This document shows positions 20,001 through 36,018 of a stretch of 62,476 bases of DNA, piece after piece (the stretch's first letter is position 1; the number at the start of each line of letters is the position of its first letter). The stretch covers positions 1 through 62,476 of the forward strand of contig JAVBOV010000040.1 in assembly GCA_031550205.1 (NCBI GenBank), read 5' to 3'. Both the position numbers and the translations under genes were made by a program. Under the pieces are notes generated by a model, which did not search any database, was not told where the DNA came from, and was given only the letters and a program-made list of their open reading frames with translations. Source of the stretch: Alphaproteobacteria bacterium (GTDB lineage: Bacteria; Pseudomonadota; Alphaproteobacteria; RF32; CAG-239).

Positions 20001-21336
20001 CGACTTCCGCTCCGGCAGAATTGCGCACCGCACCCAGAGGCAAAAGAGCGCCGGAAAGACTGCCGTCGGCAGAAAAAGCATAATCCAGCGGAGAGGCGCT
20101 GATATCTTCAAACGAGGCATTAATGCCGATTATGCCTAAAATGTTATCGGCATTGTTAACAACCAATTGATTATCAGACATTGAAGAACCGATAATGCGA
20201 CCTTTGCTGTAGGCAACGTTTCTTTTCATATATCCCGAAATCGGGCCGTCTAACAAAACCACACCGCCGCTTTTGAGGGCGTGAGCGAACAATTTTCCCC
20301 TGTAATCAAAGACCGGTCCGGAGTTTATGATTTGGCCGATTATTTTTCCGGAGGCGTCAACTATGTTTCCGTTAACCCCCAAGCGGCCGACAATATCTCT
20401 GGCTTTGGCGATCTCACCGTTGGGCATGATGCGGCCCAAATATTTGCCGTCGATGTCCGTTGCCGCGGCGGAGATGTCCACCGAATATCCGATGAAATTT
20501 CCGTTCAGGTCAGATATTCTGCCGTCGGGACGAATGCGTCCGATAATTTTATTTTTATCGACAACCTCTCCGTTATAGGTGACAAAACCGAGATATTTTC
20601 CCTGGTAATCAAAAGCATAACCGGAACTGACAATTTTGCCGATGATGGAGCCGGCTTCATTATAAGCGTAGCCGTTGGCCTTGATAAAGCCTATGCGCTC
20701 CGCATTAAAGTCCGTTACATTGCCGCCGGGAGAAACGCTGCCGATAAAATCTCCCTGCAGCGATACAACCATTTTGGAGGAGATTAAGCGGCCGTCTAAA
20801 ACATATTCAGAGCCGATTTTGCGATAAGCGTAACCATCCATGGAAATGAAACCGATTTTTTGCCCGGCAAGATTGGTGTAGCTGCCGTCGCCGGTTAAGC
20901 GGCCCACGGTTTTTCCTTCATCGGAATAAACCAAGCCGGGAAACAAAACCGAGCCGATAACGTTAAAATAATCGTCAACCACAAGACCATTCGGCAGAAC
21001 CCGGCCGGCAACCTTGCCGGAAGCCAAACGAACAGAACCGTCGTTACTGACTTTGCCAATGAAGGCGTTATCGGTGCCGACGACCACACCCTGAGGGATT
21101 ACTCCGCCAAGAAGCTCCCCTTTAGAGCCAATGATTAAGCTGTCGGCGGTAACATTGCCAACCAATTGATTGTCGAAACTGACAACTTTACCGTCCGGAA
21201 TTACCTTGCCCAAAAGGTCTCCGTTAAAATCAACCGCCGTAATTTCCTCCGCCAAAGCCGGAGCCGGGGCAACAAAGCAAAGCAAAGCCAAACTCAGGGC
21301 TTTGATAAGGAAACTATGTGCTTTATAAAAATTCAA
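17074..21336 (-). CDS. virB10: Repeat-expanded VirB10/TrbI-family T4SS core protein (1420 aa)
   Basis: N-terminal hydrophobic segment ALSLALLCFVAPAPALA. From about aa 30 to 1000, degenerate 17-18-aa repeats (KVIPDGKVVSFDNQLVGN, RVLPNGLVVDDYFNVIGS, IRPDGRISDLNGNFIGY). Gly-rich hinge. TrbI/VirB10 core at about 17500..18100 (MIFADKPIPAVIARSID, ILIPAGSRLIG, ISWERLIRPDG, YVPAGTRIIVYPNVDL). G/S/Q/P-rich tail of about 130 aa. Confidence 0.85.
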   Translation of the reverse strand: MNFYKAHSFLIKALSLALLCFVAPAPALAEEITAVDFNGDLLGKVIPDGKVVSFDNQLVGNVTADSLIIGSKGELLGGVIPQGVVVGTDNAFIGKVSNDGSVRLASGKVAGRVLPNGLVVDDYFNVIGSVLFPGLVYSDEGKTVGRLTGDGSYTNLAGQKIGFISMDGYAYRKIGSEYVLDGRLISSKMVVSLQGDFIGSVSPGGNVTDFNAERIGFIKANGYAYNEAGSIIGKIVSSGYAFDYQGKYLGFVTYNGEVVDKNKIIGRIRPDGRISDLNGNFIGYSVDISAAATDIDGKYLGRIMPNGEIAKARDIVGRLGVNGNIVDASGKIIGQIINSGPVFDYRGKLFAHALKSGGVVLLDGPISGYMKRNVAYSKGRIIGSSMSDNQLVVNNADNILGIIGINASFEDISASPLDYAFSADGSLSGALLPLGAVRNSAGAEVAYLSPNGALLNKEGVALPGKITQSGAVLDERNRLLGTLDIAHFPSLAINVLGNFVGTEDSDASIIDANQSLVGKIADKNQVLSNNNELIGRLAEKKVFLNGGCEFLGVLSPDGSIRNYKNVSQGRPLQNNQAVSDLGTIVGYGVSYANVVDYNGNVLGAANAVGKIINYSGEDLGCLNKREQLVNSSGVVIGAAVRQSPVINFNGEIIGKILSDGSVVDEDNESIGYLQPGLGVNSKTGMPLGAALQYGVAFDNNNAYLGRVTEEGRVLNDKGEDVGSLRFDGYIVSDNQKIGYALYDFYIYNQGGDAIAYIAKDGSILSFDGKNMGRLDRGFLVDKSFALLGRGNRDYYIRDDAGIIVGELGLNGVLLNLDNQPLGEVDKEGIISDANGNVVAAAKPLQYYNLTLDRQKVYDEKGDVIGYVGANNSVVNEDGEIIGLLQADGTVVSANGDIIGGIGVDWYEKVEAPKARDKKLPEVGVVDKDIKEKAGKSFGIALTPDGEYLGDIFEDGRVFDKSGQYLGKKMPDGLIMNDDGALIGIEESQKSGGGDMFIPAGTFGRGGAYGTGTGPGGNLGPGGGFGPGERYDSQRAEALAAAQEERRKNISVGKLSSNVRKESFDGMQKDWAEQGITKVISSWRVDMSEMIFADKPIPAVIARSIDSNNPTPITAFVERNVYAEEGRNILIPAGSRLIGTLGGLTASTEATSHSAKVQISWERLIRPDGSLFVFQGITGDAQGRGGALGYLDQQLFKKYTLPIMTTALTSYTSYMMAPKDDSGTEIESPKQQAANDARQNFLNEMNQVFEQILQDKTNIKPLTYVPAGTRIIVYPNVDLWLRNFERDKEAGDADMRKRNILIDDKEVASETDALRNKRKRENSGGGGSGGVDSGSSVVYESEDPNINPVRTNQLIDDNQMNQQRAQQRAQQRSGAGGTPPPPPPSFSVAPSSSGTVPSGPAPSAGTSGGSSGSSGSVPQLF

Positions 21337-21339
21337 AAT

Positions 21340-24300
21340 TTAGTTCCTTCTGTTTTTTGCCACTTCCTGCAAAGCATAGCCCGCAACTTTTTTATCTAAG
21401 TTAATGAACGAGCCGTTGCTTTTGATGTACCCGATATCTTGGCCGGAAGGGCTGATGACCCTGGCGGCGTGGTTTAATCTGCCGATGTATTGACCTTCGC
21501 TGCCCAAAACCGCAGTGCCGATTTTATAAACACGACCCAAGATATTTTCAGCATCGTCCACAGCCAAATCTCCGGTAAGGACGCGGCCGAAGACATCTTT
21601 ATCTTTGCCAGAGATTTTACCACCAAAATCAACGTAGCCTACAACTTTGTCAGAGTTATCAATAACTATATCTCCGCTTAAAACTTCACCCATAAGTTTG
21701 CCGGCAGTGCTTAAAACATTGCCGTCGGACAGAACTTTTCCGACAACAATATTGCCGGCATCTATCACCTGGCCGCCGGGTTTTACAGCAGCAACAACAT
21801 TGCCGGAATAATCAACCACTGCACCGCGCTTCAAAAGGCTTAAGTTCTTGTCGGTGGAGCCGCCGGGCAAAATTGCCGAAATACTGTCGTTTTTGAGGTC
21901 TAAAATATCTCCCAGTGCGTTCATGCGGGCTTTATAATTGCCCAAGATGTCCACCAAAATTCCTTCTTTTATAATCTCACCAATGACATTGCCGCGGTTA
22001 TCCAAGACTTTGCCGTCGGATGTTGTTTTGCCCTGCTGTTTGCCGTCCAAATCTATTACTCTGCCGTCAAAAAGACTATGACCGAGATATGAGCCGTCAT
22101 AACCGATGGCAACGCCTTTAGGAGCTATGGCGCCGCGATATTCTCCACGGTTGTCGATGAACATTCCCTTGGAATCTATTTGGCCGAAGACCTCTCCAAA
22201 GCGACTGATGACCGAAGAACCGTAAGAAACCCTGCCGATGCTGCTGCCGAAGAAATCCACAACTTCTCCTTTTTGAGAAGGAATGCCTAAGATGCCGCCA
22301 TAAAAGTTCAGACCATCTCCGGATATTTTGCCGATTGACAAGCCTTTGTCATTATAAACTTCTCCGTCGGGAAACAGGCGCCCCATTATATTGCCGGCAG
22401 CGTTGACAATTGTCGTTGCAGGATTTAATACCACGCCGATGATATTATTGTTATCATCCGCCACCAGATTGTTGGCAAACAATTTGGCATCTTTTTGGCC
22501 AGATATGGAAACTTTGCCGTTTTCTCCGACCACATTTAAGAAGTTGCCGTCCATATCATAGGCATATATTGCCTCCTGGTAATGCCCAAGATATCCGCCG
22601 CTGCGGTCAAAGACATCGCCGTAAATGCCGACGCAGCCGACCGGCAGCATGGCTCCGGAAATTACCAAGTTATCTTCGCTGATTTTGCCCAGATAATCTC
22701 CGTCGTAAGAAACCGCAACGCCTTTTTTGGCAACAGCGCCGATGATATTGCCTTTTTCATCTAAAACCGAGCCGTCGGGGTTTAAACAGCCGAGATAGTT
22801 GTTGGCGGTGCCTCTGACCACGCCGTCGGTGCCGGCTTCGCCCAGATAACGGCAGCTGTCGTCAAAAACCTTGCCGGTCTTAACCACTTCACCAACATAG
22901 GTGCTGGTGTTGTCAAGGACTGTGCCGTCGGGCATAATTTTTAAGTTTGTATCGGCGTTGGCTTTTCTGATTTTGCCGTCTGTTTCAAGATAGCCCAGGT
23001 TTTTACAGCCATATCCAACCACCAGGCCGCCAGGCTGCAAACGAGCAATTACTTTTGAACCTGAAACATCCTTGACCAAACCGGAGGAAAGAATGCGGCC
23101 AATCACCTGCTTTTCCGAATTTTCGATGCTGCCGTTGTTAGCTATGACGCCAAGCACTTCTCCCTTAGGAGTGATGGGGATTAAGGTGGTGTCAACCAGC
23201 GAGCCTATTTTTTTGCGGATATTGCTGATGACATTGCCATCCTTGTCCACAAAGCCGATCTGTACGCCGTCGGCGTTAAACACTTTACCGGAAGCATCGG
23301 CATAACCGATTAATCTGCCGTCTTTATCGTAAACCAAGCTAACCAGTTCTCCGGCCTTGCCGATGATGTTGCCATTGGCGTCCACCAAAGTTCCATCTTC
23401 AAGCATGCGGCCGATAATGTTGCCGTTGAAGTCAACCACGTTGCCGTTTTCATCAATATAACCGATGACGTTGCCGTCTTTATCATATGCCAGGCGGCGT
23501 TCCGCGCCCGGAGCACCTAAAACTTCATCAACCACAACGTTGCCGTCTTCGTTAACAAAACCGACGGTTTTGCCGTTAGAGTCAACCACCGCTCCGTTGG
23601 GCATTACAACTCCAAGCATATTGCCGTTGTCGTCTATGGCCACGCGGCCCGGCTTGGTAACAGAACCGATGGGGTTGCCCTTTAAGTCCACCACCGTGCC
23701 GTCGGAGAGCATGCGTCCGATGATATTGCCGTTGGCATCAACCACAGTGCCGTCGGGCAGAACGCGGCCAATGATGCTGCCGTCTTTGTCATAAACATAA
23801 CCGGCATCAACAGCGCGGCCGATGACATTGCCGCCATTATCTACTACCGTGCCGTCAGGCAAAACACGGCCGATGATATTGCCGTCCTTATCAACCACCG
23901 TGCCGTCGGGGTTGACATAACCTATAACATTGCCAAATTCATCATAAACCAAACGGCGATTGTCGGCCACACCGATGATGTTGCCCTTGTCGTCCACCAC
24001 CATATCCGAGGCATTAACTCTGCCGATTAAGTTTCCGCCGGGGTCTTTGACATAGCCCTCTTCATCGGCCAGACCGATGACTCCTCCGTCGGGGCCGACG
24101 GCTCTTCTCAAGCTTTGAGTGTCTTTGGGCTCAGCACCGACCGGAGCTGAGGCTTCACAATAGTTGCAGTCTTCACGGCGGATGGCGTTGCCTTCAACCG
24201 GAATTTTTTCAGATTTGGCATTGGCTTTGGTGAGGTTGGACTCATGCCAAGAGACAATGAAGTTATTTTGAACATTGCCGGCAATAACCGGAGCCCAAGA

Positions 24301-24756
24301 CATGGTAATGTGGCAGGTTTGCTCTCCTCTCAGTTCTTTGCCGGTGCAGCTGTCTTCAAAAACAAAGCCGTCGGCCGGAGGGTCTGCCAGTTCAACCGAA
24401 ACAACCCGAATGGTCTTTTTGCCGTTGGTGCCGACGGTTAAAACATTTTTGGCATCGGTGCCTAAGACCACCTGCCCCATGGGAACGGGGTTCGGAGTTG
24501 TGGTAATCGGTTTTTCAGCTTCTTCAACGGTTGTAAATTCAACGTTATCCGTAAGCGCGTTTTGGCGGCCGATGTTTAAAGCGTCATCATTATCGGTAAA
24601 AACCGGCTCTTGATAATCATCGGTATTGCCGCCGCTGGAAATCAACAGATAAAGGCCCAAAAGAAAGATTATAAGAGAAGTAATACCAACCGCCAAGATA
24701 ATGCGGTTGGTTTTCTTCACATAGGTTTCGGAATGTGTTAAGTTTTCTTTGCTCAT
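21340..24756 (-). CDS. Bitopic 1138-aa protein made mostly of the same 17-residue repeat as VirB10; no canonical VirB counterpart
   Basis: One TM (IILAVGITSLIIFLLGLYLLI). Possible Ig/ASH-like module (VVLGTDAKNVLTVGTNGKKTIRVVSVELADPPADGFVFEDSCTGKELRGEQTCHITMSWAPV). Then about 900 aa of repeats such as VLPDGTVVDNGGNVIGR, VLPDGTVVDANGNIIGR and MLEDGTLVDANGNIIGK. Its start overlaps the virB9 stop by 4 nt and its stop lies 4 nt before virB10. Confidence 0.75.
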   Translation of the reverse strand: MSKENLTHSETYVKKTNRIILAVGITSLIIFLLGLYLLISSGGNTDDYQEPVFTDNDDALNIGRQNALTDNVEFTTVEEAEKPITTTPNPVPMGQVVLGTDAKNVLTVGTNGKKTIRVVSVELADPPADGFVFEDSCTGKELRGEQTCHITMSWAPVIAGNVQNNFIVSWHESNLTKANAKSEKIPVEGNAIRREDCNYCEASAPVGAEPKDTQSLRRAVGPDGGVIGLADEEGYVKDPGGNLIGRVNASDMVVDDKGNIIGVADNRRLVYDEFGNVIGYVNPDGTVVDKDGNIIGRVLPDGTVVDNGGNVIGRAVDAGYVYDKDGSIIGRVLPDGTVVDANGNIIGRMLSDGTVVDLKGNPIGSVTKPGRVAIDDNGNMLGVVMPNGAVVDSNGKTVGFVNEDGNVVVDEVLGAPGAERRLAYDKDGNVIGYIDENGNVVDFNGNIIGRMLEDGTLVDANGNIIGKAGELVSLVYDKDGRLIGYADASGKVFNADGVQIGFVDKDGNVISNIRKKIGSLVDTTLIPITPKGEVLGVIANNGSIENSEKQVIGRILSSGLVKDVSGSKVIARLQPGGLVVGYGCKNLGYLETDGKIRKANADTNLKIMPDGTVLDNTSTYVGEVVKTGKVFDDSCRYLGEAGTDGVVRGTANNYLGCLNPDGSVLDEKGNIIGAVAKKGVAVSYDGDYLGKISEDNLVISGAMLPVGCVGIYGDVFDRSGGYLGHYQEAIYAYDMDGNFLNVVGENGKVSISGQKDAKLFANNLVADDNNNIIGVVLNPATTIVNAAGNIMGRLFPDGEVYNDKGLSIGKISGDGLNFYGGILGIPSQKGEVVDFFGSSIGRVSYGSSVISRFGEVFGQIDSKGMFIDNRGEYRGAIAPKGVAIGYDGSYLGHSLFDGRVIDLDGKQQGKTTSDGKVLDNRGNVIGEIIKEGILVDILGNYKARMNALGDILDLKNDSISAILPGGSTDKNLSLLKRGAVVDYSGNVVAAVKPGGQVIDAGNIVVGKVLSDGNVLSTAGKLMGEVLSGDIVIDNSDKVVGYVDFGGKISGKDKDVFGRVLTGDLAVDDAENILGRVYKIGTAVLGSEGQYIGRLNHAARVISPSGQDIGYIKSNGSFINLDKKVAGYALQEVAKNRRN

Positions 24757-26378
24757 TGCGTCCTAACTACACTACAAAAAATTCCGTTGCGGCCCAAGCG
24801 AGAGCAGATGTTGTCTCCGGTTTCAAGGCTGTCTACCGGACCAACTCTTAAGTGGAACAGTTCTTTGCCCTGACCGTCGGCCGGAGTATCCACCGAGAAG
24901 AAAGGATCATATACATTCAGTTCCTGATATTTTCCGGAAAGATTATCCCAAAGAGATTCCAATTTTTCAACATCGGCATCCGTGCCGAGTTCTATGGATA
25001 TATTGGCCGATCCGCCTTCAGTAAACCCGGAGCCGTAGCCATAACCGTTTAACGCCCTTTGAGCATCAGGATTATATCTGTTGGTGTTTTTGATGTTGGT
25101 CATTTTGGAATAGTCAAAACCCGCATCAGTGCCGGAGTGTCCGGAGACATAACCGCCGGGAGCGGCAGTGCCGGAACCGGTTGAAACCTTGGCCGGAGGA
25201 ATATGACTTACGCCGCCCTGCTCATAGCCCGCCGATAAATCTCGGCCGGCGCCACGGTCGGCTCTATCAAAGCCGGAACCTTCGCGGTAACCCTGATTGT
25301 AAGGGACATCGCCGTTGGGAAGAGGCGGAGGCACATCCCATGACGGAGACATGGTTTTGCCGGCATAAGAGATGTTTTCAAGACCGACATCATCCGAGCG
25401 GCGCATTTTAAGACAAATAATGCGCTTGCCGTTTTTCATTACCATATCACCGACGCCCTCAACAATAATCAGACGATTATTGGGACCCTTGGTGCGGAAA
25501 CCGACCGGAACTTCAATTCTTTCAACAATCAATGTAACAATCGGACGCTGAGTCATGTTTAAGGCTTTTTCACCCAAATCGATATAGGTGAAAATATCAT
25601 CTCTCCAGACACGTTCCGGAGCAATAATTACGTCGTCGGGGTTTGGAATGTAAACCTCTATATCAAACCTGAATTTGGTCGGATCCATGGGAATGGTTTT
25701 CAGCCAGTCGTTTTTTTGGAAGCGTCTGGTGTAAGTGGAATCTACCGATTTAGGAGAATTAAAATTTTGCGGAGAGCCGCCTCCGGCACGGCTTGCTCTG
25801 CCGCTGCCGCCGGAAGCTTTGTCTTCATCCTGCGGAGCATCTATGACCTCAATATCGATAATTGAATTGGTCAGTCTTTCAGTGTTAACGCCTTCGCTTT
25901 TGGCATAAAAAACATAACGGTTGCCGGAGCGTCCGAAAACGATGATGTTGGTGTCAACGCCGACATTGGAGCCTTTGCGGGGATATAACAAAAGAGTGTT
26001 GGGACCTGAAATCTGACCGTCAAAAGTTGCGTTATCACCGATAAAGATATCTTCAATGAGCTCCCAGTCGGGAAAATTGATTAAGGTTATCATGCCTTCA
26101 CGCAGACGAACCGGCAGAACCAAATCCGGAGACCAATAATATTTGGAATATGCCGGCTTGGTTTGACCTTCTCCCAAATTTTGCAGCGGGTCAAGCCAGG
26201 CGCTTTGAACCATGCCCAGAGAATTGAACCCGGCGTAGCCCAAATTCATCGGCGTATATTGACCTTGGGTTTGATCGGCATTTTGATCAAGGCTGCCCAT
26301 GGTTGCCTGAGAATATGCTCTGGAGCTTATTACCAAAAGCAGAAGAAGAGAAAATATTTTTAACAACCTTAAAGTCAT
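24753..26378 (-). CDS. virB9: VirB9/CagX-family T4SS outer-membrane core protein with a C-terminal SPOR-like domain
   Basis: 541 aa. Signal peptide LLLLLVISSRAYS. VirB9-like N-domain (LPVRLREGMITLINFPDWELIEDIFIGDNATFDG..TNIIVFGRSGNRYVFYAKS). G/S-rich linker. Last ~85 aa (about 24756..25010) read ISIELGTDADVEKLESLWDNLSGKYQEL..KELFHLRVGPVDSLETGDNICSRLGRNGIFCSVV, a SPOR pattern. Confidence 0.8.
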   Translation of the reverse strand: MTLRLLKIFSLLLLLVISSRAYSQATMGSLDQNADQTQGQYTPMNLGYAGFNSLGMVQSAWLDPLQNLGEGQTKPAYSKYYWSPDLVLPVRLREGMITLINFPDWELIEDIFIGDNATFDGQISGPNTLLLYPRKGSNVGVDTNIIVFGRSGNRYVFYAKSEGVNTERLTNSIIDIEVIDAPQDEDKASGGSGRASRAGGGSPQNFNSPKSVDSTYTRRFQKNDWLKTIPMDPTKFRFDIEVYIPNPDDVIIAPERVWRDDIFTYIDLGEKALNMTQRPIVTLIVERIEVPVGFRTKGPNNRLIIVEGVGDMVMKNGKRIICLKMRRSDDVGLENISYAGKTMSPSWDVPPPLPNGDVPYNQGYREGSGFDRADRGAGRDLSAGYEQGGVSHIPPAKVSTGSGTAAPGGYVSGHSGTDAGFDYSKMTNIKNTNRYNPDAQRALNGYGYGSGFTEGGSANISIELGTDADVEKLESLWDNLSGKYQELNVYDPFFSVDTPADGQGKELFHLRVGPVDSLETGDNICSRLGRNGIFCSVVRTQ

Positions 26379-26391
26379 AATCTAATGCACC

Positions 26392-27111
26392 TTATTTTAT
26401 CTTGTTATGAGTTAAAGAATATTGAGCTACGGTAAAACCTATGGGGTTTTTCAGCCTTTCGCCGTATTTTACGGTTTTAGACTGGTAAGCAATGCGCATG
26501 GAAGCGGTCCAATAATTGACCTCGGGAGCAGTGGAGGAGGGAAACATGTCCTGAGTTTCATATTCAACCTGCCACAAGCCGCGGCCAAGCTCATTAACCG
26601 TGAGGATACGGACGTTTCTGACCAGACTTCTGGCTCTGATTATGTCTAAAGCCTTGTAAGCGGTTCTATCCAAAAACTCTTGATAAACCGAGCTTGAAGA
26701 CATTTCCTGAATGGGGCCGCCGGGCATCCAGCGGGCCTGCATCTCTGAGATGTCCTGATCAAAAGAGCTTCTGAGCAAAACATATTCTCTGACAAAAACC
26801 TCGGTAATGGCTTTTTCATCAATGATATTGCCGCGAACCGGCTTAATGGAATATACCTGCTCCTGCTTGTTTTGAAAGGTGAGCAGAAACGGCTCTAAGC
26901 GGTATAGCGGAACAACCTGAGTAATGGCAAGCAGCAAAACCACGTTGCAGCAAAGACTGATGGCGGTGATAATGGCGAATGCTCTGGCTGTCCAAAGATA
27001 TCTTTTTTCAGCAAGATTGGCCACAAAAGCATCTGACGCACTCCGAGAAGCGGCACTGCTGCCGGTAAGAAGCTTTTGCCCGATATTTGCCTGTCTGATT
27101 TGTTTTGCCAT
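26392..27111 (-). CDS. virB8: VirB8-family T4SS protein, copy 1
   Basis: 239 aa. N-terminal TM (FAIITAISLCCNVVLLLAI), a periplasmic domain, and the conserved C-terminal NPxG motif (RLKNPIGFTVAQYS). Confidence 0.85.
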   Translation of the reverse strand: MAKQIRQANIGQKLLTGSSAASRSASDAFVANLAEKRYLWTARAFAIITAISLCCNVVLLLAITQVVPLYRLEPFLLTFQNKQEQVYSIKPVRGNIIDEKAITEVFVREYVLLRSSFDQDISEMQARWMPGGPIQEMSSSSVYQEFLDRTAYKALDIIRARSLVRNVRILTVNELGRGLWQVEYETQDMFPSSTAPEVNYWTASMRIAYQSKTVKYGERLKNPIGFTVAQYSLTHNKIK

Positions 27112-27127
27112 TCAACCCACTTTCCAA

Positions 27128-27322
27128 CTAAATTGCCGCAACAAACCAATCGGGCAGATTCTTGGGCAAATCCAAGTGCATGCAGGCGCAAGGAGAAAGC
27201 TTTAATTCGTCCACACCCTTGCCAACGCCTACGGGTTCAGCCTCGTAATAAGAGCCGAACACGCCGCAACCGGCCAAAAACAACAAAAACAGAAATAAAA
27301 CAAACTTTTTATCCATATCCAA
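27128..27322 (-). CDS. virB7: Small lipoprotein, VirB7-like by position
   Basis: 64 aa. Lipobox FLLFLAGC. Lies between two virB8 genes as described for rvhB7. DLPKNLPDW loosely resembles the VirB7 P-[ILV]-N-K motif. Confidence 0.45.
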   Translation of the reverse strand: MDMDKKFVLFLFLLFLAGCGVFGSYYEAEPVGVGKGVDELKLSPCACMHLDLPKNLPDWFVAAI

Positions 27323-27454: not shown

Positions 27455-28228
27455 TTATCTTAGTTCTACTTCGGTTTGAGAGTAGCGGACAACGGTGAAG
27501 CCCAGAGGGTTGATTAAGCGAAGGCCGACAAAGCTTCTTTCCGGAATGAAGTAAGCGGTTATGGAAGCGGTCCAATAACGGGTTTTCAAGACCAGAGCCT
27601 TGGTTCTTTGGTTGCGGGCGGCTTCCGACAAATCATAGGTTTTAAAATCAACCTTCCAGATGGCGCTTTTTTCACCGCCCACTCTGCCGGCGGAAATGAT
27701 TTCCACCTCCCTGACCAGCTTGGCGTCAAACATGGCTTGCCAAGTGCTTTTGCGGGTAGAGTCAAATTGCGAGAAAACATCGGGCGCGGATAAAAAATTT
27801 ACCATGCCGCCGGGATACCAGCGCGTGCGCATTTCTATCTGGTCGTTAACAATGGTGTTCCTTATAATTACATATTGTTTGATGAACGTTTCCATCATCT
27901 GGTTCATTGAGGCCTGATTTTCAAGCAGAACATTATAAGATATCGGGTCGTAGCGGACAATGCCGTCAGAAGAGTCCTGGCTGATGATTAAAAACGGTTC
28001 AACGCTGACCTTGGGAGCAAGCTTGAACAGCATTAATGAAAAAGATAAAAAGGCAGATAAAGAGACAACCGCCAGAAAGATGAAAAATCTGGAAAGCCAA
28101 ACATAATAGTGCAGCTTGGAGCTTTCAATCTCACGCTCTTTTTCATCAATAAAATCAATTTTCTTGCCGCTGCCATAGGTCAGCGACAACATTTTGATTC
28201 CGGCCAATATTTTATCTTTAGAGCTCAT
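27455..28228 (-). CDS. virB8: VirB8-family T4SS protein, copy 2
   Basis: 257 aa. TM (FFIFLAVVSLSAFLSFSLMLF). NPxG motif RLINPLGFTVVRYS. Clearly a paralog of 26392..27111. Confidence 0.85.
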   Translation of the reverse strand: MSSKDKILAGIKMLSLTYGSGKKIDFIDEKEREIESSKLHYYVWLSRFFIFLAVVSLSAFLSFSLMLFKLAPKVSVEPFLIISQDSSDGIVRYDPISYNVLLENQASMNQMMETFIKQYVIIRNTIVNDQIEMRTRWYPGGMVNFLSAPDVFSQFDSTRKSTWQAMFDAKLVREVEIISAGRVGGEKSAIWKVDFKTYDLSEAARNQRTKALVLKTRYWTASITAYFIPERSFVGLRLINPLGFTVVRYSQTEVELR

Positions 28229-28242
28229 TAAATTTTATTTTC

Positions 28243-31200
28243 CTAGTAGGCTGCACAGTAAGGTTTTTCAAACTTTTTAATTTGCTTTTCAAGTTCCTCT
28301 TCCGCTTTCTTGCGCTGAGCACCGGCAACTTCGCGGTTGACTCTTTCAGAAACAATTTCTTCATCAAGTTCGGAGCCGGAAGAGACGTTGGTACTTAAGG
28401 TTATAAGTTCGTCCTTGTCTTTTTGCAGGGCAAGAAAAATATTCTGCAGCAGGGCAACTCTTTCCAAAACCAGCTCTCCGCCGCCGTCTCCGGCTTCCTT
28501 AAGCACAGACGAGGCCAGAGATACTTTTTCGTTTTTCTTGCTTTCAAGCTGTTTTTTTATCTTGTCATAATCTTCAGCCTTGGCAAGGTCAAAATTACGG
28601 TCGATAGTAACACCCACATTGGCCAGAGCCTCTACCAGAGTATCTTTAATGTCTTCAATATTAATGGCAAGTTCGTCGCGAGCCTGTTTCAAATCTCGCT
28701 CGCGGTCAACAAAGTTTAAGAAATTGCCGATTTGATTGCGGTCAAACTTGGAGCGGCGGAGAAGAGCGTCTTCCGTTGTTTTCTTATATGAAGTTTCCTG
28801 CTTGGAAAGTTCTCCCGCAACATATTCAAGACGGGCAAAAATATCAACCACGTTCTTTCTCAGCTTTATGCCATTGATGCCATAGTCTAAAAATACGCCA
28901 AGCTCGCTGGTGTTGGCGGCCAAATCTCCGCCCTTATATTCTGAATTTTTGAACAATATTTTATAATCTATGCCTGCGGACGCGTCTGCGCGGCCGGATG
29001 TTTCGTCTTCAGGGTCAAAAACATTATAATTGTGCGTTTGCTGAATTTTGCCGTTTACAACTACCGGCGCAATAAACGGTTCACCGACCACAATGTTTTG
29101 ACAATCAGTATAGGCGTTGGAAACAACCGAGTTGGTCACCAGATAATTTTTGGTTAAAGGATTGGCGATAACCGTATGTTTGTTGTTGTTGCAAGGATAG
29201 GTGCCGCCGTCTAAGAAGCTCATTTCCTCACCGCCCAGGGTCAGAAGTTTTTTGAGGTCAACCTCTTGCTCAACAAAAGCGTCTTTGGCCAGAACTCTCT
29301 TCCAGATTTCAGGCATTTTGCCGCCGATATCCAAGAAATATTCCGAAATGGTATAACCGTCTTCAAAACCATATTTAGCTTGAATGATGTTGCCGTAATC
29401 ATTTTCATCAAAGTGGAAGACCTCTCTTAACGGAGGGAGATAATCTGACGGGGCTGATTTCGGCGCTTTAAGGTCTCTGGCCTTGCCGCCGTAGCCGATG
29501 TAATATTCAAAATCTGCCTCCAAGCAGGCGTCTTTGGCGCAGGCAACGGAAGTTAAGAACTGCTGATATACCAAAGAAACAGACTGAACAACAGCCGGAG
29601 CCGCCGACAAACCGCTTAAGCCTTTAATGCCGGTAAGCGGCAGATTTTGCAAATCAGTCATCAGTTTTTGATGTCTTTGCAGCACTTTGGCGTGCCCGCT
29701 TGAAACATAGATATCGTCTCCCATGGCAAGGATATCCGCTTTTGTCTGTTCAATAAGCTCCTGAGCTCTTTTCTGAGCCTCGGTGGTGAGCATTTCAGCT
29801 TCCGAAATGTAAGAGGTTATTTGGCTGCTTATGCCGGCAAATGAGCCTAAGTCAAGGTTGGCCATGGCCAGCATTTTCTCATTTCCTTTTTGTGTAACGG
29901 CAGAAGAAGCGGATAATAATCCCTGATATTTTTCAACTTCCTGTTCATAAACTTTTTTGGCGGCGGCAAGGCCCTGCTCGTAGTCTTTAATGAGAGGCAG
30001 GCGGTCTTTAACGGTGCGGCTTAACAGGTCTTTGGCATATCCTCTTGCTCTTAACATCTGCTCGGCATATGAAGCCTCAACTTCCTTATGGCTTTTAATA
30101 TATTCTTTTTTAACGGCCTCAATATCCTTCTCGGTCTTTTGAATGGCCTCTTCAATGAGCTTTACTTTGGCTTTTTCAGCAGCAACCAATTCTCTGATTT
30201 GAGCAACGTTTTTGCCGGCAAAAGCCGCCACGGCAAGGCTGATTTCTTTTTGCAGCTTGGATTCCGTTAAGAAAGCGCTTTCTTCAGGGGTGATAAACTC
30301 ACGGGAATATTCTTCGGTTTGATAAGTGGTAACAACGGTCTCTTCTTCTTTTTGAGGAGCATCTTTTTGTATTTCCTGAGTTTGATATTCCACAATCGTC
30401 GGCTGCGCAGGGGCGGTTTTTATCGGTGCTTCAACCGCTATTTCCACGATTTTTTCTTCAGTAACGGTGAGTTCAGAGGGGCCTTTTTCTTCGGTGGTAA
30501 TCTCAAAAACCTTATCGGCCGGAACCCCTTGGGCAAAGGCCAATGTTTCAAGATAAGAATGTTTTTCAGGCTCCGCATTTTCAGGCTGCTGAATCGGGGT
30601 CAGACTATCCGGCTGTTCTTCAATGAAATCTTCAAGGCTTTGAACCGGCGCAGCATTTTCAATAACCAGTTCCTCCGTGCTGATTTTAATGTCTCCGGGG
30701 GTAAGTTCCTGTTTAATTTCAGTGGTGGTGGTTTGGTAAATTTTCGGTTTTTCAGGGGCTGTTTCCGCCGGAGCAATAACCTCACGATGAGTGGTGGTAA
30801 CAACGGTTTCAGCGCCATCTATTTTTGTTTCAACAACAGTTTCTTTTTCAAAATCCACAACGTTTTTAACAATCACCGCTCTGTCTTCAACTTCGCCCTG
30901 ATATTCATTAATATCCTTGATTTGAGACGCCATGTCCTGAGCTTCAAGAGTTGATTCCTGAATGCGGCCTTCAAGTTCGTTAATTTTTATGTTGTATTCA
31001 TTTATAAGCTTGGCGATGCCGTCTAACTGCTGATTTAGGTTTTTCTTGCGGGCATTAAGCGGGGTGAGCTTATTGTTCATGGCAGATTTTGCCTGCGCAA
31101 AGGCCTGGTCTCTTGAGCCTTTGCCAAGATTAAAGCTGCCTTCGGCATCGGCCAAGTCTTTGGCGGCGGCATCCTGTTCGACTTTGAGGGTTTTCTGCAA

Positions 31201-33021
31201 ATTATCATCAAAACGTCTCAACTCGTCTTGGCCGATTTTTTCCTGCATTTCCGCTTCATAAATTTCTTTTAAGCGCTTTTCTGCGGCCAGAGATTCCTGA
31301 TATGCTTTTTCATTTTTATTCTTCTTGTATTGGGCGGTTTTTTGAACCTGGTCATAATATTTATCAAATAATATTTCTTTTTGTTTGGCATATTCGGCAG
31401 GAGCCAGATTAGCCAAAGATTTGGAACGGTCTTCCGAACCAAGGCCCAAACTTTCGCGTTTTTCGGCAATAAAGGCATCGGCCATAGATGCAACGATTTT
31501 AATTGCGCCGGCTTTTAAATCAGCCCTTGCAATATAGTCTTTAATATTTTCATATTTGCCTTCAATATATTGATTATAAAAACTTTTCTGGTCGTTCCAG
31601 ATGGGATATTTTTTCTTCAAGCCGCCCCACTGAGGCGAATTTGAATATTGGTCTTGAGCCAGAAAGCTGAAGGCTTCGGCGCCGATTTCCCAAGAAAGTA
31701 AGTTAGTTTGGCGGTCTATTTGGCCAATCTCATCTTCCGAGCTGGGGCTCAGCAAACCGCCGGTGTCTATTTTGACATTGGAATTGGCGGCATATTCGTT
31801 GCCGGTGTCGGCTTTGATAATTCCGGTATAATCAACCTCGGCCAGGTCTTGTGCGGAAACAGAGTTGGAAAGTTCGGCTTTGGCCGTATCATAAGCCTTA
31901 ATTGCCCAGCCGGAGATGCCGCCGCGCAGCTGGTGGGCGCTTACCTGAGCGTTTAAATCTCTGCCGGCCCAGACCTTGTTCGGGTCGGAATAATATTGTC
32001 CAAGATGGCGGATGGCGCACCCGCTTGAAAGCTGCAGGGCTTTAATGGAGGTTTCATGCATTCTGACATAGCGGTCATATGAAACAAAGGAATCTTGAAA
32101 AGAAGGCATGGACTGGAGCAGATTATGAATTTCTATGGCTTCCATGGCCTGATTATAAACGGGGTCAAGCTTGGCCAGCCTTTCAAGCTCATCGCGGTTG
32201 GCGGCATATGGAGAATCAAGACCGGAATCCGGAGCCTCAACAAATTCTACAATTCTTTTGGCAAAGGCAACGGTTTCCGACGAGCGGTAACTGCCGGTCT
32301 TTTGGGCGGATGGAGCCTCTTCGGGAAGAATATTCATCATCGCTTTGGCTGCTTCATATTGGGCTTTCAAAGCTTCAAATTCTTCATAAACCTTGAGCAG
32401 CTGTTCATATGAGACCTCGGCATTATATGCGTTGGTCCAGACGCCGTTGACGTTGTCTCCCTGCTCAGCGCCCTGCTCCGTGTCTCTAAAGCCGTCATTT
32501 AACTTGTTTTCAATTCCTTTGAGCCGTTCTTCAAGTTTTCGGGAAGAAACATAAACCTCCATTAAGGTATCTTGATAAAACTCACGACGCTTGGCGGCAT
32601 ATGCGGCCTGCTCTTCGGCCGTGGAGCCTGGATATTGCATGAAGAGTTCATATATGCCGTTTTTAACCGAATTATAATCTTGATTATCTATGTCTTTGCA
32701 TTCCTCTATGGTACGGGTGCCGGGTACCGGTTTTTCAAGCTCTTGGCCTAAGGCAGACTGCTCGGAAAATTCCGGAAGATAGCCTTCTTTCAAGGCTTTT
32801 TGAGCACTTAAGGCATCTTGTTTTATCTCGTTGACTTTGGATTGAACTTTGCGTTTTTTGGCAGTTACATCGTTTATTTTTTTCAAAACGTTATTCGGAA
32901 TATCCGTGGTGATATCAAACGGCATTGGCGGAAACATCAGGGTTTGAGCGCTTTGCGGAGCAAGCACTGAAAACAGAGCGGCAGCCGAGAGAGATAAAAA
33001 TATGGATTTAAGTTTTCTCAT
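28243..33021 (-). CDS. Giant secreted coiled-coil protein (1592 aa), unknown function, inside the T4SS operon
   Basis: Signal peptide SLSAAALFSVLAPQSAQT. Long heptad-like K/E/A/Q-rich stretches. A central E/T/V/P-rich region. A Cys-containing globular region near the C-terminus. Shares the ETLAFAQGVPA motif with 34798..36018. 4-nt overlap with the upstream gene. Confidence 0.6.
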   Translation of the reverse strand: MRKLKSIFLSLSAAALFSVLAPQSAQTLMFPPMPFDITTDIPNNVLKKINDVTAKKRKVQSKVNEIKQDALSAQKALKEGYLPEFSEQSALGQELEKPVPGTRTIEECKDIDNQDYNSVKNGIYELFMQYPGSTAEEQAAYAAKRREFYQDTLMEVYVSSRKLEERLKGIENKLNDGFRDTEQGAEQGDNVNGVWTNAYNAEVSYEQLLKVYEEFEALKAQYEAAKAMMNILPEEAPSAQKTGSYRSSETVAFAKRIVEFVEAPDSGLDSPYAANRDELERLAKLDPVYNQAMEAIEIHNLLQSMPSFQDSFVSYDRYVRMHETSIKALQLSSGCAIRHLGQYYSDPNKVWAGRDLNAQVSAHQLRGGISGWAIKAYDTAKAELSNSVSAQDLAEVDYTGIIKADTGNEYAANSNVKIDTGGLLSPSSEDEIGQIDRQTNLLSWEIGAEAFSFLAQDQYSNSPQWGGLKKKYPIWNDQKSFYNQYIEGKYENIKDYIARADLKAGAIKIVASMADAFIAEKRESLGLGSEDRSKSLANLAPAEYAKQKEILFDKYYDQVQKTAQYKKNKNEKAYQESLAAEKRLKEIYEAEMQEKIGQDELRRFDDNLQKTLKVEQDAAAKDLADAEGSFNLGKGSRDQAFAQAKSAMNNKLTPLNARKKNLNQQLDGIAKLINEYNIKINELEGRIQESTLEAQDMASQIKDINEYQGEVEDRAVIVKNVVDFEKETVVETKIDGAETVVTTTHREVIAPAETAPEKPKIYQTTTTEIKQELTPGDIKISTEELVIENAAPVQSLEDFIEEQPDSLTPIQQPENAEPEKHSYLETLAFAQGVPADKVFEITTEEKGPSELTVTEEKIVEIAVEAPIKTAPAQPTIVEYQTQEIQKDAPQKEEETVVTTYQTEEYSREFITPEESAFLTESKLQKEISLAVAAFAGKNVAQIRELVAAEKAKVKLIEEAIQKTEKDIEAVKKEYIKSHKEVEASYAEQMLRARGYAKDLLSRTVKDRLPLIKDYEQGLAAAKKVYEQEVEKYQGLLSASSAVTQKGNEKMLAMANLDLGSFAGISSQITSYISEAEMLTTEAQKRAQELIEQTKADILAMGDDIYVSSGHAKVLQRHQKLMTDLQNLPLTGIKGLSGLSAAPAVVQSVSLVYQQFLTSVACAKDACLEADFEYYIGYGGKARDLKAPKSAPSDYLPPLREVFHFDENDYGNIIQAKYGFEDGYTISEYFLDIGGKMPEIWKRVLAKDAFVEQEVDLKKLLTLGGEEMSFLDGGTYPCNNNKHTVIANPLTKNYLVTNSVVSNAYTDCQNIVVGEPFIAPVVVNGKIQQTHNYNVFDPEDETSGRADASAGIDYKILFKNSEYKGGDLAANTSELGVFLDYGINGIKLRKNVVDIFARLEYVAGELSKQETSYKKTTEDALLRRSKFDRNQIGNFLNFVDRERDLKQARDELAINIEDIKDTLVEALANVGVTIDRNFDLAKAEDYDKIKKQLESKKNEKVSLASSVLKEAGDGGGELVLERVALLQNIFLALQKDKDELITLSTNVSSGSELDEEIVSERVNREVAGAQRKKAEEELEKQIKKFEKPYCAAY

Positions 33022-34130
33022 TTTCCTGCTCCGGTTTTGTCTTTTTTCAATTTATATTTGCATAGATTTAAGACCGACATATTAGATTTCAAATCTTGAA
33101 ACTGAGGGTTTTCATCAATGGAGAGTTCAAAAGAAGTATCGGCTTTAAGGTCTGCAATTTTAAGTTTGAGAAGATTTATGATCATGTGCATTTCTTCAGC
33201 GGTAAGGTCAGAGGTCAGACTGACTGCGTCCATGGTGCCTTCCTGCACGGACACGCCTTCGGCAATTTTTTCGGCTTTTTCCAAAGCGGGGTCAAGCCCC
33301 AAGGGGGTTTTGGCGGCAAGGGCCAAGGCATTGAGGTTGTCTTCAAAGGCCACCGAATTTCTGGCAACGCGGACGCGGGCTTTGGTGGCAGAGGTATCGG
33401 CCTCGCCTTCTTTAAGATACATTTCTTTAACCACCGCCTCAGAGTTGGGGACGCTGTCGGGGTTGGCGTCAAAAATACTTGAGGCCTTAGCTGCCAAACC
33501 GGTGGCGGCGTTTTCAAGGGCCTGCGATTTGAGCTCTTTTAATTTTTTTTCAATTTCCGTAACCTTGGCGTTTTTTTCTTCGGTCAGGGTTTGGGTGTTC
33601 ACCGCCAATTCTTCGGCCAGAATTTTTTTGCTGCCGGCATTTTGCGCGATTGATATTTCAATATTGGCTTTTTCTTGGGCGTCTTTAGCCAACGCCAGCT
33701 GCTGAGACAAAATGGCGGTGTTGTCATCAGCGGCTTTGGTTTGCGCCTCTATTCTGGTTTGCAAGGCTCTTATGCTTTGTTCATAGCCGGCTTCAACTTG
33801 CTTTTTTTCACCTTCAAGTGCTTTAATTTCTTTGGCAACAGCCGTTTTCTTTTGAGCGGCGGCGGCCTTGGCCTGAGCTTGCTCAATCTGCTCTTTGCTG
33901 TTGTTCACCTTTTCTCCAAGATATTTAACGGCGGCTTCATCACCGGTACCGATGGTAAACTCCTGCTTAATGCCGGCGGCTTCATCAAGTTTTTCCAGCG
34001 CTGTTCCTCCAACTTCCTTAATAGTCTCAAGAGCGGATTTGACGGTATTGGCAATATCAAATTTTATCTTGGCTTCGGCCGAAGCGGAAAGCAGGCATGC
34101 TGATAAGGCAAGGGCGATTATTTTTTTCAT
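33018..34130 (-). CDS. Secreted (possibly lipidated) Ala/Lys/Glu-rich coiled-coil protein
   Basis: 370 aa. N-terminus MKKIIALALSACLLSASAEA|KIKFDI, so either SPI cleavage or the LSAC lipobox could apply. 4-nt overlaps on both sides. Confidence 0.55.
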   Translation of the reverse strand: MKKIIALALSACLLSASAEAKIKFDIANTVKSALETIKEVGGTALEKLDEAAGIKQEFTIGTGDEAAVKYLGEKVNNSKEQIEQAQAKAAAAQKKTAVAKEIKALEGEKKQVEAGYEQSIRALQTRIEAQTKAADDNTAILSQQLALAKDAQEKANIEISIAQNAGSKKILAEELAVNTQTLTEEKNAKVTEIEKKLKELKSQALENAATGLAAKASSIFDANPDSVPNSEAVVKEMYLKEGEADTSATKARVRVARNSVAFEDNLNALALAAKTPLGLDPALEKAEKIAEGVSVQEGTMDAVSLTSDLTAEEMHMIINLLKLKIADLKADTSFELSIDENPQFQDLKSNMSVLNLCKYKLKKDKTGAGK

Positions 34131-34786
34131 TGCGCACCTCCTGCGGTTTTTCCTTCCGTTTCAGGACGGTTGGTTAAGGTACGCATGCGTTTGTTCATTC
34201 TCAGTTGATATGATGCAGCCTGCAAGGCGCTTATTCTGGAAAGCCTTTTGGAAGCTTCTAAGTCTTCTTTGGCTGCATCTTGGATAATGTCTCTGGTGTC
34301 TTCTTTTTCAGAAGCTTTTTCTTTTTTCTCATTGTTCAGATTAACCCTGGTAATGTAGGCAACAGCGTAAAGACGGACGGCGTTTTCACGGTCCGTTTCG
34401 GTTAATTTTTGCTCATTTTCAAGATATGCGGCAACGTCTTCTCCCTGCCCGCGAACGGAGACGAAGTTTTGTTTGATGTTTTCAATGGTTTTATCATGGT
34501 CATTGACGTTTTCAATTGAGGAAGGCAGGTTGATGCCGCCGATTTTGGGCTTTAAGCCGGCAATCTCCTCAACCTTAAGATTGTCCTTCATGCCTTTGAC
34601 GCCGGCAACCTGCTCGTTAAGCTGGCGATATTCTGAAGAAATGTCCTTGATGACGGTGCTGGCTTTTTTGGTGACGTTTTTAATTTTGCCGATGATTTTT
34701 TGAAAAAGCTCAAAGTCTGCCCTGGCCTCGGAGACCGGAAGCATCATCAATAAAACACAAAAGATGAAAGCGGCAAGCTTTTTCAT
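34127..34786 (-). CDS. Secreted protein, unknown function
   Basis: 219 aa. Signal peptide FIFCVLLMMLPVSEARA|DFELF. Predicted helical, charged. Confidence 0.5.
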   Translation of the reverse strand: MKKLAAFIFCVLLMMLPVSEARADFELFQKIIGKIKNVTKKASTVIKDISSEYRQLNEQVAGVKGMKDNLKVEEIAGLKPKIGGINLPSSIENVNDHDKTIENIKQNFVSVRGQGEDVAAYLENEQKLTETDRENAVRLYAVAYITRVNLNNEKKEKASEKEDTRDIIQDAAKEDLEASKRLSRISALQAASYQLRMNKRMRTLTNRPETEGKTAGGAQ

Positions 34787-34797
34787 TAGTTTAACCC

Positions 34798-36018
34798 TTA
34801 TTCAATCCCTATAGTTTTTTTATCAAAGCCCGACATTCTTTCCAGAGCCTTTAAACGCATTTCAGAAGCCAGCATTTCCATTTGAGCTTTAATAAGCTCC
34901 ATCTGCTGAACCTTAACCTGCGCCAAATTGTTAATATCATCGCGTTCGGTTGAGGCGTTTTCCATGTCTTTTTGGGTTTTTTCAACCACATCTTCTTCAA
35001 ACTTGGACATTTTGTTGCTGAGGTCTAAAGCCGAGGCCAGGTTTTCGGTAGTGGCTTCATAAACCATGGCCGCATGTTTTTGCTGGCATTCAGGGGCAAC
35101 CTGCGTGTCCCCGTGCTGCATGCAGGCAACAAGTCTTTTCATGCAGTCATTAATCACGTTTTCATCGCTTAGGGCATTTTTATCGGTTATTTCGCAATAA
35201 AACGCCATTTCCTGAGGCATTATGCCGGTGAAATCAGTGGCGGGAACGCCTTGGGCAAAAGCCAGCGTTTCAGCAAAAATCAGAGAACGGCTTTGCGGAG
35301 AGAGGGTCTGCATATCTATTTTTTCAAGCTCCATTTTGCGAACGGGTCTTTTTCTGAAGCTTTGAGGTTGTTCAGGCGCCAAAACAGGCGCGACGGCCGG
35401 TGCCGGTTCTTCGGTTAAGGCTTCTTCAGCGGGCAGAGCAGGCTGCAAAGCCGGCTCCGGTGTTTTTTCTTCATAGGTCTTTTTAATTGAGCTTGGCTCA
35501 ACAAGCACTGAACTTTCTGTGGCTGTTGTGGCGGTTGAAGGCTGAGGAATGTCAACAGCTGCTGCAGTTGGGGTTTCGCTGCCGGAAATATCCTGATAAA
35601 CTTCTTTGGCGTCATTATAAGTGTCTTTGTATTCATTATATTCTTTTTTGGCATCGGCTATTCTGGCTCTGGCCTCTTCTTTTTGAGCATTGAGTTCGTC
35701 AAGTTTTTGCTTTCTTTCCTCATAAGCTTTGCGCAGCTTTTCAAGACGGGCTTGTTCTTTTTTAACTTTTTCGGCTTTTTCCTTGGCCTTTTCCACTTTG
35801 TCTCCGGCCAGTTTGGACATTGAAGACTTGGCATCGCCGAGGGCTGATGTCATCTTGTTGGCAGAAGTGGTGCCGGAAACAATGGTCTTGGACTGCTTAA
35901 CAGATTCCATGTTGCCGGAAATGGCTTCCTTAATTGCGCCAAGGTCAAGGGTCGGCCATTGGGCTTTGGCTTCAGAGCTAAAGACAACCATCATTAATAA
36001 AAGAACTAAGAATCTCAT
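34798..36018 (-). CDS. Secreted coiled-coil protein, candidate VirB5/TrbJ analogue by position and N-terminal pattern
   Basis: 406 aa, the first gene after virB4. Signal peptide MMVVFSSEAKA|QWPTLDLGAIKEAI. The mature start (aromatic-x-x-x-D) loosely resembles the TrbJ/VirB5 N-terminus. Coiled coil, Pro/Ala-rich linker, ETLAFAQGVPA motif, Cys-containing helical C-domain. Confidence 0.35.
   Translation of the reverse strand: MRFLVLLLMMVVFSSEAKAQWPTLDLGAIKEAISGNMESVKQSKTIVSGTTSANKMTSALGDAKSSMSKLAGDKVEKAKEKAEKVKKEQARLEKLRKAYEERKQKLDELNAQKEEARARIADAKKEYNEYKDTYNDAKEVYQDISGSETPTAAAVDIPQPSTATTATESSVLVEPSSIKKTYEEKTPEPALQPALPAEEALTEEPAPAVAPVLAPEQPQSFRKRPVRKMELEKIDMQTLSPQSRSLIFAETLAFAQGVPATDFTGIMPQEMAFYCEITDKNALSDENVINDCMKRLVACMQHGDTQVAPECQQKHAAMVYEATTENLASALDLSNKMSKFEEDVVEKTQKDMENASTERDDINNLAQVKVQQMELIKAQMEMLASEMRLKALERMSGFDKKTIGIE

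Follow-up and report, generated by a model that had tools for sequence, protein, structure and literature searches.

Four consecutive open reading frames (ORFs) on the minus strand of contig JAVBOV010000040.1 (assembly GCA_031550205.1, Alphaproteobacteria bacterium; 62,476 nucleotides (nt), referred to below as the window) occupy positions 28243-36018, the slot between virB4 and virB8 of a chromosomal, rvh-like, P-type type IV secretion system (T4SS) of uncultured gut Alphaproteobacteria. The reading that we prefer, at a probability of roughly 0.45, is that this block is a clade-specific, Sec-exported and fast-evolving distal (tip or adhesin) module of the machine, a function that we infer. 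The first protein, ORF1, is the best candidate for VirB5, plausibly a very diverged one whose membership of that family is not demonstrated. ORFs 2 to 4 are, as judged from sequence, new protein families without known relatives.

The genes are ORF1 (p406; 406 amino acids (aa), 34798-36018), ORF2 (p219; 219 aa, 34127-34786), ORF3 (p370; 370 aa, 33018-34130) and ORF4 (p1592; 1592 aa, 28243-33021). They are flanked upstream by virB4 (36080-38512, minus, PF03135) and downstream by virB8a (27455-28228, minus, PF04335), which starts 14 nt past the ORF4 stop. From virB4 through the four ORFs to virB8 the spacing is 61, 11, -4, -4 and 14 nt, and a Shine-Dalgarno-like sequence is present before each of the four. 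An initial annotation had placed four exported ORFs in the slot after virB4, which is borne out, and had described them as joined by 4-nt overlaps. Such overlaps exist for p219/p370 and p370/p1592, but p406 and p219 are separated by a gap of 11 nt. The block is part of a single long minus-strand operon in the order VirB2/TrbC-like pilin, 717-aa hairpin protein, virB3, virB4, ORF1 to ORF4, virB8, second virB8, virB9, a 1138-aa beta-flower-repeat protein, virB10 and virB11. Sites resembling promoters or terminators occur along the operon stretch at no higher frequency than in shuffled sequence, and the four-ORF block holds no tandem repeats of note.

All four N-termini have a basic n-region followed by 10-15 hydrophobic residues and a small-x-small site, in agreement with the signal peptides proposed earlier; cleavage is predicted at AKA before Q in ORF1, ARA before D in ORF2, AEA before K in ORF3 and AQT before L in ORF4. 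By Kyte-Doolittle analysis none of the proteins has a further membrane segment. Acidic residues (D+E) make up 15-16% of the composition, basic ones (K+R) 12-17% and alanine 10-17%. Scans of the four proteins against Pfam and NCBIfam gave coiled-coil noise only, and PDB profile searches with the ORF1 to ORF4 family alignments returned only unspecific coiled-coil proteins (SMC, spike HR1, apolipoproteins, SipB/BipD), so the remark that the block has no obvious VirB counterpart stands. No enzymatic or toxin domain was detected in the four ORFs by Pfam, NCBIfam, PDB profile and Foldseek searches.

The order of the block is conserved across the clade. Related loci came from a VirB4 scan over one genome per species. 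Of the 191 relatives that it gave, the 80 best (77-87% identity) were taken with flanking sequence, and presence of the block was scored in the 64 of them in which virB4 and virB8 could both be read. All 80 loci derive from Alphaproteobacteria assembled from gut metagenomes (human, mouse, chicken, rabbit and ruminant). Their labels are 'uncultured Azospirillum', Candidatus Scatocola and the like, and the clade is probably GTDB order RF32. A literature search on T4SSs of this gut clade returned nothing. The same ordered four-protein set lies between virB4 and virB8 in 64 of the 64 loci, within an interval of 7.0-9.4 kb. The initial annotation had named absence of these genes from otherwise syntenic loci as an outcome that would speak against its view, and no such absence was seen. 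Protein sizes are approximately 500-700, 220, 400-480 and 1250-1650 aa, and nearly all have signal-peptide-like starts; a more distant locus (L093) holds genes for 586, 228, 424 and 1367 aa in the same slot.

Compared to the window proteins, identity is 77-87% for VirB4 and 50-75% for VirB8, against 21-48% for ORF1, 23-35% for ORF2, 18-28% for ORF3 and 25-37% for ORF4. Ratios of nonsynonymous to synonymous substitution rates (dN/dS), based on only three usable close locus pairs, are 0.06-0.16 for the four ORFs, 0.01-0.02 for VirB4 and 0.02-0.09 for VirB8. The four ORFs are real genes under purifying selection, with a rate of evolution several times that of the core machine. Some subclades have ORF1 and/or ORF4 divided into two genes at a linker, and in one of these (loci L019, L022, L024, L026, L035, L041, L050 and L057) both are divided, yielding a six-gene block. 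In the split genes that were inspected the downstream part has its own signal peptide. These splits show that the proteins are modular.

Of the four proteins, ORF1 is the one with a link to a known T4SS component. VirB5 proteins fold as a three-helix bundle with a globular appendage (TraC 1R8I, CagL, TrwJ), and in R388 VirB5 forms a pentamer on the base of the VirB6 stalk and ends up at the pilus tip. The ORF1 gene lies directly downstream of virB4, its start 61 nt past the virB4 stop, and this position is the same in all related loci. After a signal peptide (residues 1-19) the mature protein begins with QWPTLD (35944-35961), continues in long helices (residues ~26-145) and a Pro/Thr-rich linker (residues ~146-235; 35314-35583), and ends in a helical C-terminal domain (residues 262-406) with invariant C275 and C292. 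Among 39 orthologues the mature start reads Q-[WIL]-P-T-phi-D (phi being a hydrophobic residue), with P22, T23 and D25 at least 90% conserved or invariant; variants include IPTVD, LPTFD and GIPAID. Agrobacterium VirB5 starts with QFVVSD after ARA and R388 TrwJ with QGIPVFD after VMA, and an alignment of 12 VirB5 members shows the same kind of start, phi-P/V-V-x-D. The mature N-terminus of ORF1 aligns in exact register with that of VirB5/TrwJ. ORF1 resembles the minor pilin VirB5/TrwJ/TraC/TrbJ in its gene position right after virB4, a Sec signal peptide cut before Q, a mature phi-P/V-x-phi-D followed by an amphipathic helix, a mostly helical body and fast evolution. It differs in giving no match at the level of hidden Markov models (HMMs), in its Pro/Thr spacer and in the extra Cys-containing helical domain. 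On these grounds ORF1 probably works like VirB5 and probably descends from it.

Profile comparison of the ORF1 family with the 12-member VirB5 alignment (hhalign) reached 87.8% when signal peptides were included. Without them the value fell to 10-31%, a weak match that nonetheless places mature residues 1-29 against VirB5 residues 1-29 in register, and reversed-profile controls stayed at or below 1.4%. In addition, 8 of the 39 orthologues gave weak N-terminal matches to DUF4141 (best E 1.3e-4). Foldseek of the p406 model against PDB found no match at E<=0.001; its non-significant neighbours (E 0.17-1.9) were ClyA/HlyE, AhlC and CagL (E=1.9), for a model with a predicted local distance difference test score (pLDDT) of 45.5. 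CagL and Hemolysin E have both been superposed on TrwJ (PMC9259494), and we regard these neighbours as an observation, not as evidence.

The initial annotation had suggested a VirB5-like nature for all four proteins. This can be maintained for ORF1 only, by its position, signal peptide and mature N-terminus; for ORFs 2 to 4 no VirB5 similarity is detectable. An aromatic/hydrophobic-x-x-D pattern had been noted at all four mature N-termini, and the acidic residue is indeed kept across the orthologues of every family: D25 is invariant in ORF1, and D24 of ORF2, K23/D25 of ORF3 and P37/D40 of ORF4 (numbering of orthologue P0065) are at least 90% conserved. The ORF3 family (mature start phi-K-phi-D) and the ORF4 family (P-T-x-D) carry looser versions of the VirB5-type N-terminus, and ORF2 has only A-D-phi-E. 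This acidic pattern is too short to serve as proof of a common origin of the four families.

ORF2 (34127-34786) consists of the signal peptide, a mature A-D-F/I-E start and a helical body, with a conserved C-terminal module 'RENxAxLYAxAxxxR' in which R147 and R181 are invariant. ORF3 (33018-34130) is an Ala-rich helical protein whose mature part starts with K-I-K-F-D; N137 and Y359 are invariant. We also considered p370 as a lipoprotein and rejected this, the 'LSAC' being too near the N-terminus and unconserved. The hhalign comparisons suggest that the ORF1 C-terminal domain, the C-terminal half of ORF2 and the central part of ORF3 have a helical module of about 110 residues in common, with about 56% for ORF1 against ORF2 and likewise for ORF2 against ORF3. 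Because a reversed control reached the same value, paralogy among the four families is treated as unproven and the module as a lead only.

Several results weigh against a distal module built on a VirB5 equivalent. Most of the 87.8% hhalign score comes from the signal peptides, and without these the profile alignment of ORF1 and VirB5 yields nothing beyond the 29 N-terminal residues. The VirB5/TrbJ HMMs (Pfam PF07996 and NCBIfam) do not match p406 at E<=1, nor does the VirB5 HMM match any of 48 ORF1 orthologues (the 39 and 9 short or split variants) at that threshold. ORF1 is about twice the size of a canonical VirB5, and its AlphaFold2 (AF2) model, built from an alignment of 10 sequences, is unreliable (the pLDDT of 45.5 given above). 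For ORFs 2, 3 and 4 neither HMMs nor hhalign detected similarity to VirB5, and the coiled-coil control for the shared helical module (ORF3 versus reversed ORF4) also scored 56%. Gene-wide diversifying or positive selection is not seen in the three locus pairs, where dN/dS is well below 1. Finally, a location at the surface or pilus is something that we only infer.

ORF4 shows the most elaborate architecture of the four. Its conserved N-terminal part (residues 1-520; 31462-33021, minus) comprises the signal peptide, a 'PPMPFD' motif, a helical hairpin, an ETVAFA linker motif and, at residues 273-516, a Trp-rich helical domain in which H299, C335, W351, W372, W465 and W475 are invariant. A hypervariable, indel-rich coiled-coil spacer follows (residues 521-1080; 29782-31461, minus). 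Its length differs greatly between species; the complete proteins measure about 1050 to 1855 aa. In the conserved C-terminal part (residues 1081-1592; 28243-29781, minus) an alpha/beta globular domain at residues ~1128-1388 carries conserved C1277 and C1307, the rest being helical up to a conserved P-Y-C-A-A-Y terminus (C1589). C335, C1277, C1307 and C1589 are invariant or nearly so across orthologues, which fits an oxidising compartment; the predicted disulfide pairs are C335-C1589 and C1277-C1307.

Structure prediction, which had been proposed together with Foldseek as a check on these proteins, gave a poor model for ORF1 and a confident one for a compact ORF4 orthologue (P0065; 1053 aa, 45 homologues). 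Here the AF2 model (pLDDT 75, predicted template modelling score (pTM) 0.65) contains helical hairpins, the helical Trp-rich domain and the alpha/beta globular domain, the last of which corresponds to the Cys-containing globular C-terminal region suggested before. Foldseek of this model against PDB and BFVD gave nothing at E<=0.001; the top non-significant matches were PrgA and the hairpins of SMC, MukB and JetC. A lysozyme domain, to which the phage tape-measure/lysozyme proteins at the top of the BFVD matches pointed, was rejected with TM-scores of only 0.06-0.10. The profile of the ORF4 central region matches SMC-type antiparallel coiled coils in the PDB search. From conservation and the P0065 model, ORF4 probably folds back on itself. 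It resembles enterococcal PrgA and SMC-like stalks in combining long helical hairpins with globular domains; however, PrgA (6z9l_A) is no match to the P0065 model (E=0.4, probability 0.04, TM 0.06-0.08), and the globular domains of ORF4 have no PDB counterpart. With the C-terminal 512 residues of p1592, an exhaustive HMMER search among 1.84 billion representatives found only 195 proteins, and in the full-length matches (best 150 of 195) the domain is always C-terminal in proteins of 1050-1855 aa. Given these matches, the ORF4 family is small and clade-restricted, with a fixed architecture.

ORF1 and ORF4 are connected by a peptide. The initial annotation had pointed out an identical ETLAFAQGVPA in the first and last ORF, encoded with synonymous differences, and both copies are present: at residues 250-260 of ORF1 (35239-35271, minus) and at residues 825-835 of ORF4 (30517-30549, minus, one base from the position first given), the latter inside the lineage-specific spacer. 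The two copies differ at 5 of 33 nt, every difference being synonymous, which agrees with the selection on the peptide that had been proposed and that these data indicate. Its 11 residues are the longest peptide common to different block proteins, against a maximum of 7 in 300 residue shuffles. A third, weaker copy (ETVAFA) lies at residues 249-254 of ORF4 (32260-32277, minus).

In ORF1 the peptide is situated in the linker just ahead of the Cys-containing C-terminal domain and is kept as 'ETLxF[AG]' in orthologues. Among block proteins of related loci the pattern '[ED][TS]phi-x-F-[AGS]' was counted 23 times where 4.8 are expected, and its matches are restricted to the ORF1 and ORF4 families; in the latter the position (~residues 250-300) is that of the ETVAFA copy of p1592. 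ETLAFAQGVPA is part of an 'ETLxFAQ' linker motif common to both families. The motif marks the module boundary where other species split the ORF1 and ORF4 genes. Where ORF4 is split, the second part has a motif-like 'AETYSPF' as its mature N-terminus, and in split ORF1 genes the motif is absent or stands at the end of the first part. A docking site and a processing site are both possible readings, and one idea is that the motif (A-F-A before Q) represents a degenerate signal peptide.

A comparable arrangement exists in the Cag system of Helicobacter pylori, where CagH, CagI and CagL are encoded by consecutive genes and are exported, mostly helical proteins; CagL is regarded as a VirB5 analogue. 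A short conserved peptide motif is common to the three, whose site of action is the pilus or surface. By analogy, the block might be likened to this trio in its consecutive exported helical proteins and common short motif. There is no sequence similarity, however, protein sizes and gene number differ, and the Cag motif is a C-terminal hexapeptide whereas the motif described here is internal to a linker. In the Bartonella Trw T4SS, surface-exposed parts (trwL/trwJ) have been multiplied and diversified on a conserved core. The window likewise contains two VirB2-like genes; yet the Trw copies are recognisable VirB5/VirB2 paralogues, whereas ORFs 2 to 4 are not recognisable paralogues of ORF1 and have at most a weakly similar module in common with it.

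The block fills the slot after virB4 in which virB5/virB6 are normally found. Four consecutive polytopic membrane proteins (613, 443, 624 and 954 aa; 125-8001, plus), each with 7-9 predicted membrane segments, constitute a VirB6-like array elsewhere in the window. The first scores 30.2 bits with the TrbL/VirB6 Pfam model (above cut-off), the second and fourth match at E 0.0019 and 0.0088, and the fourth also has an M23 peptidase domain. VirB6 is neither missing nor replaced by the block, its function being encoded at 125-8001, in what looks like an rvh-style array of VirB6 paralogues set apart from the virB operon. An ORF of 64 aa (27128-27322, minus), situated between virB8a and the second virB8 (26392-27111, minus, PF04335), encodes a VirB7-like lipoprotein with the lipobox LAGC and a 'KLSPC' sequence; this is probably VirB7. 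In L093 the corresponding position holds a gene for 59 aa. The 'KLSPC' resembles the '[KI]KSP'-Cys feature of Rickettsia VirB7 (PMC2653234).

The rvh T4SS of Rickettsiales has a VirB6 paralogue array and a virB8-virB7-virB8 arrangement, and lacks VirB5 only (PMC2653234); the statement in the initial annotation that rvh systems lack VirB5 is therefore correct. Shared with rvh are the virB8-virB7-virB8 order with its small 'K-x-S-P-C' lipoprotein ahead of virB9-virB10-virB11, the tandem VirB6-like paralogues and the chromosomal location. There are also differences. Whereas rvh has no VirB5, a VirB5-like candidate is present here; where rvh has five VirB6 paralogues right after virB4, four exported non-membrane proteins are found here and the VirB6-like array is detached (125-8001); and while rvh genes are scattered in islets, virB2 to virB11 form one operon. 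Duplicates of virB4 and virB9, an rvh trait, were not found within the window, which has one of each. By gene content and layout the T4SS looks rvh-like.

Other genes of the operon are of interest as well. The VirB2/TrbC-like pilin gene (41087-41617, minus) is of normal VirB2-like size. The 717-aa protein that follows (38910-41063, minus) may be a second, extended pilin: besides its signal peptide, residues 183-234 form a two-helix membrane hairpin of VirB2/TrbC type, and a tail some 480 residues long is present. Within 17074-26378 (minus), the virB9 product has a C-terminal SPOR (peptidoglycan-binding) domain, the virB10 product is 1420 aa long with beta-flower repeats, and the additional 1138-aa protein with beta-flower/RHS-like repeats is encoded between them. 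The outer part of the machine is unusually enlarged, through VirB9, VirB10 and the 1138-aa protein. VirD4 was not found among the proteins of the window; in the more distant L093 this coupling protein is encoded at L093:2028-4241, just upstream of virB2.

Divergent from the T4SS operon runs a type IVb pilus cluster (42188-56022, plus), whose genes include TcpQ, a secretin, PilO, two T2SSE ATPases, T2SSF and two bundlin/PilS-like pilins. AT skew is strongly negative (-0.19 to -0.23) across 30001-36000; we think that its cause is codon usage in the minus-strand genes, with A-rich codons for Lys, Glu and Ala. Long plus-strand ORFs in the block (for example 30319-30954 and 33118-33705) would in that case be shadows of the minus-strand genes.

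The main rival to a distal module is that the four proteins are periplasmic scaffold components enlarging the machine, like the lineage-specific subunits around VirB7/9/10 in Cag or Dot/Icm. We consider this rather unlikely, although it has several points in its favour: the T4SS is expanded (SPOR domain on VirB9, a VirB10 of 1420 aa, the extra 1138-aa beta-flower protein), the four proteins are exported, helical and Cys-bearing, their dN/dS is low, as would be expected of structural parts, and a weak PDB profile match to DotF occurs amid the coiled-coil noise. On the other hand, the four ORFs diverge far faster than other structural parts, including the periplasmic VirB8, and the length of ORF4 varies by hundreds of residues between species, which is hard to fit to a fixed ring geometry. 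The ORF1 N-terminus, moreover, is specifically VirB5-like.

Alternatively, it might be argued that the proteins are Sec-dependent cargo that first enters the periplasm and is then let out by the T4SS, in the manner of pertussis toxin subunits and the Ptl system. Signal peptides on all four, atypical of cytoplasmic VirD4-dependent effectors, would agree with this, as would their fast evolution and the lack of VirD4 within the window; Ptl is also a system without VirB5 (PMC2653234). Nevertheless, the genes do not form a toxin operon of their own but belong to the machine operon, where they take the VirB5/B6 position, their order and four-part composition are strictly conserved, no enzymatic or toxin domain was detected, and a relative (L093) encodes VirD4 beside the operon, which together make cargo improbable. 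That the ORFs are spurious, or unrelated coiled-coil surface proteins merely lying between T4SS genes, might be suspected from the lack of any family assignment and the low-complexity, coiled-coil-type composition, but is effectively refuted by synteny in at least 64 species-level loci, purifying selection on all four, tight operon coupling, the conserved residues and cysteines, and an ORF4 C-terminal domain family found only in this architecture.

Under the distal-module reading, then, ORF1 would be the VirB5 equivalent. Signal-peptide cleavage would expose Q-W-P-T-L-D ahead of the long helices, and the protein would be extended by the Pro/Thr-rich spacer and a disulfide-stabilised helical C-terminal domain. 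ORFs 2 to 4 would be its partners in the same distal, extracytoplasmic part of the machine. In ORF4 the conserved N- and C-terminal domains would come together, with the central coiled coil forming a hairpin stalk of species-specific length, and the 'ETLxFAQ' linker motif of ORF1 and ORF4 would probably be used by both for docking or processing. Contact with a target cell or host surface would be the most likely role; fast divergence, and spacers rich in indels on a scaffold that is itself conserved, would be explained by it.

A bolder version, which we hold to be doubtful as a whole, describes an undescribed extracellular T4SS appendage. ORF1 would form its VirB5-derived base and ORF4 a giant fold-back coiled-coil fibre of species-specific length, with new globular domains toward host or prey; ORF2 and ORF3 would be adaptors, and ETLxFAQ would join the parts by docking or processing. 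The rvh-like system would then have kept and elaborated a VirB5 function that was lost by the intracellular Rickettsiales.

Summarizing, the window presents an rvh-like T4SS with a VirB5-like gene and three families without relatives in Pfam, NCBIfam and PDB. The ORF4 family (about 195 clusters) has confidently modelled domains without structural match and is a candidate new fold family. The bacteria concerned are widespread, uncultured gut Alphaproteobacteria. Should the module form the contact end of their machine, host or target specificity would have to be looked for there, and the module would offer an extracellular point of comparison for the long-standing question why the rvh systems of Rickettsiales lack VirB5.

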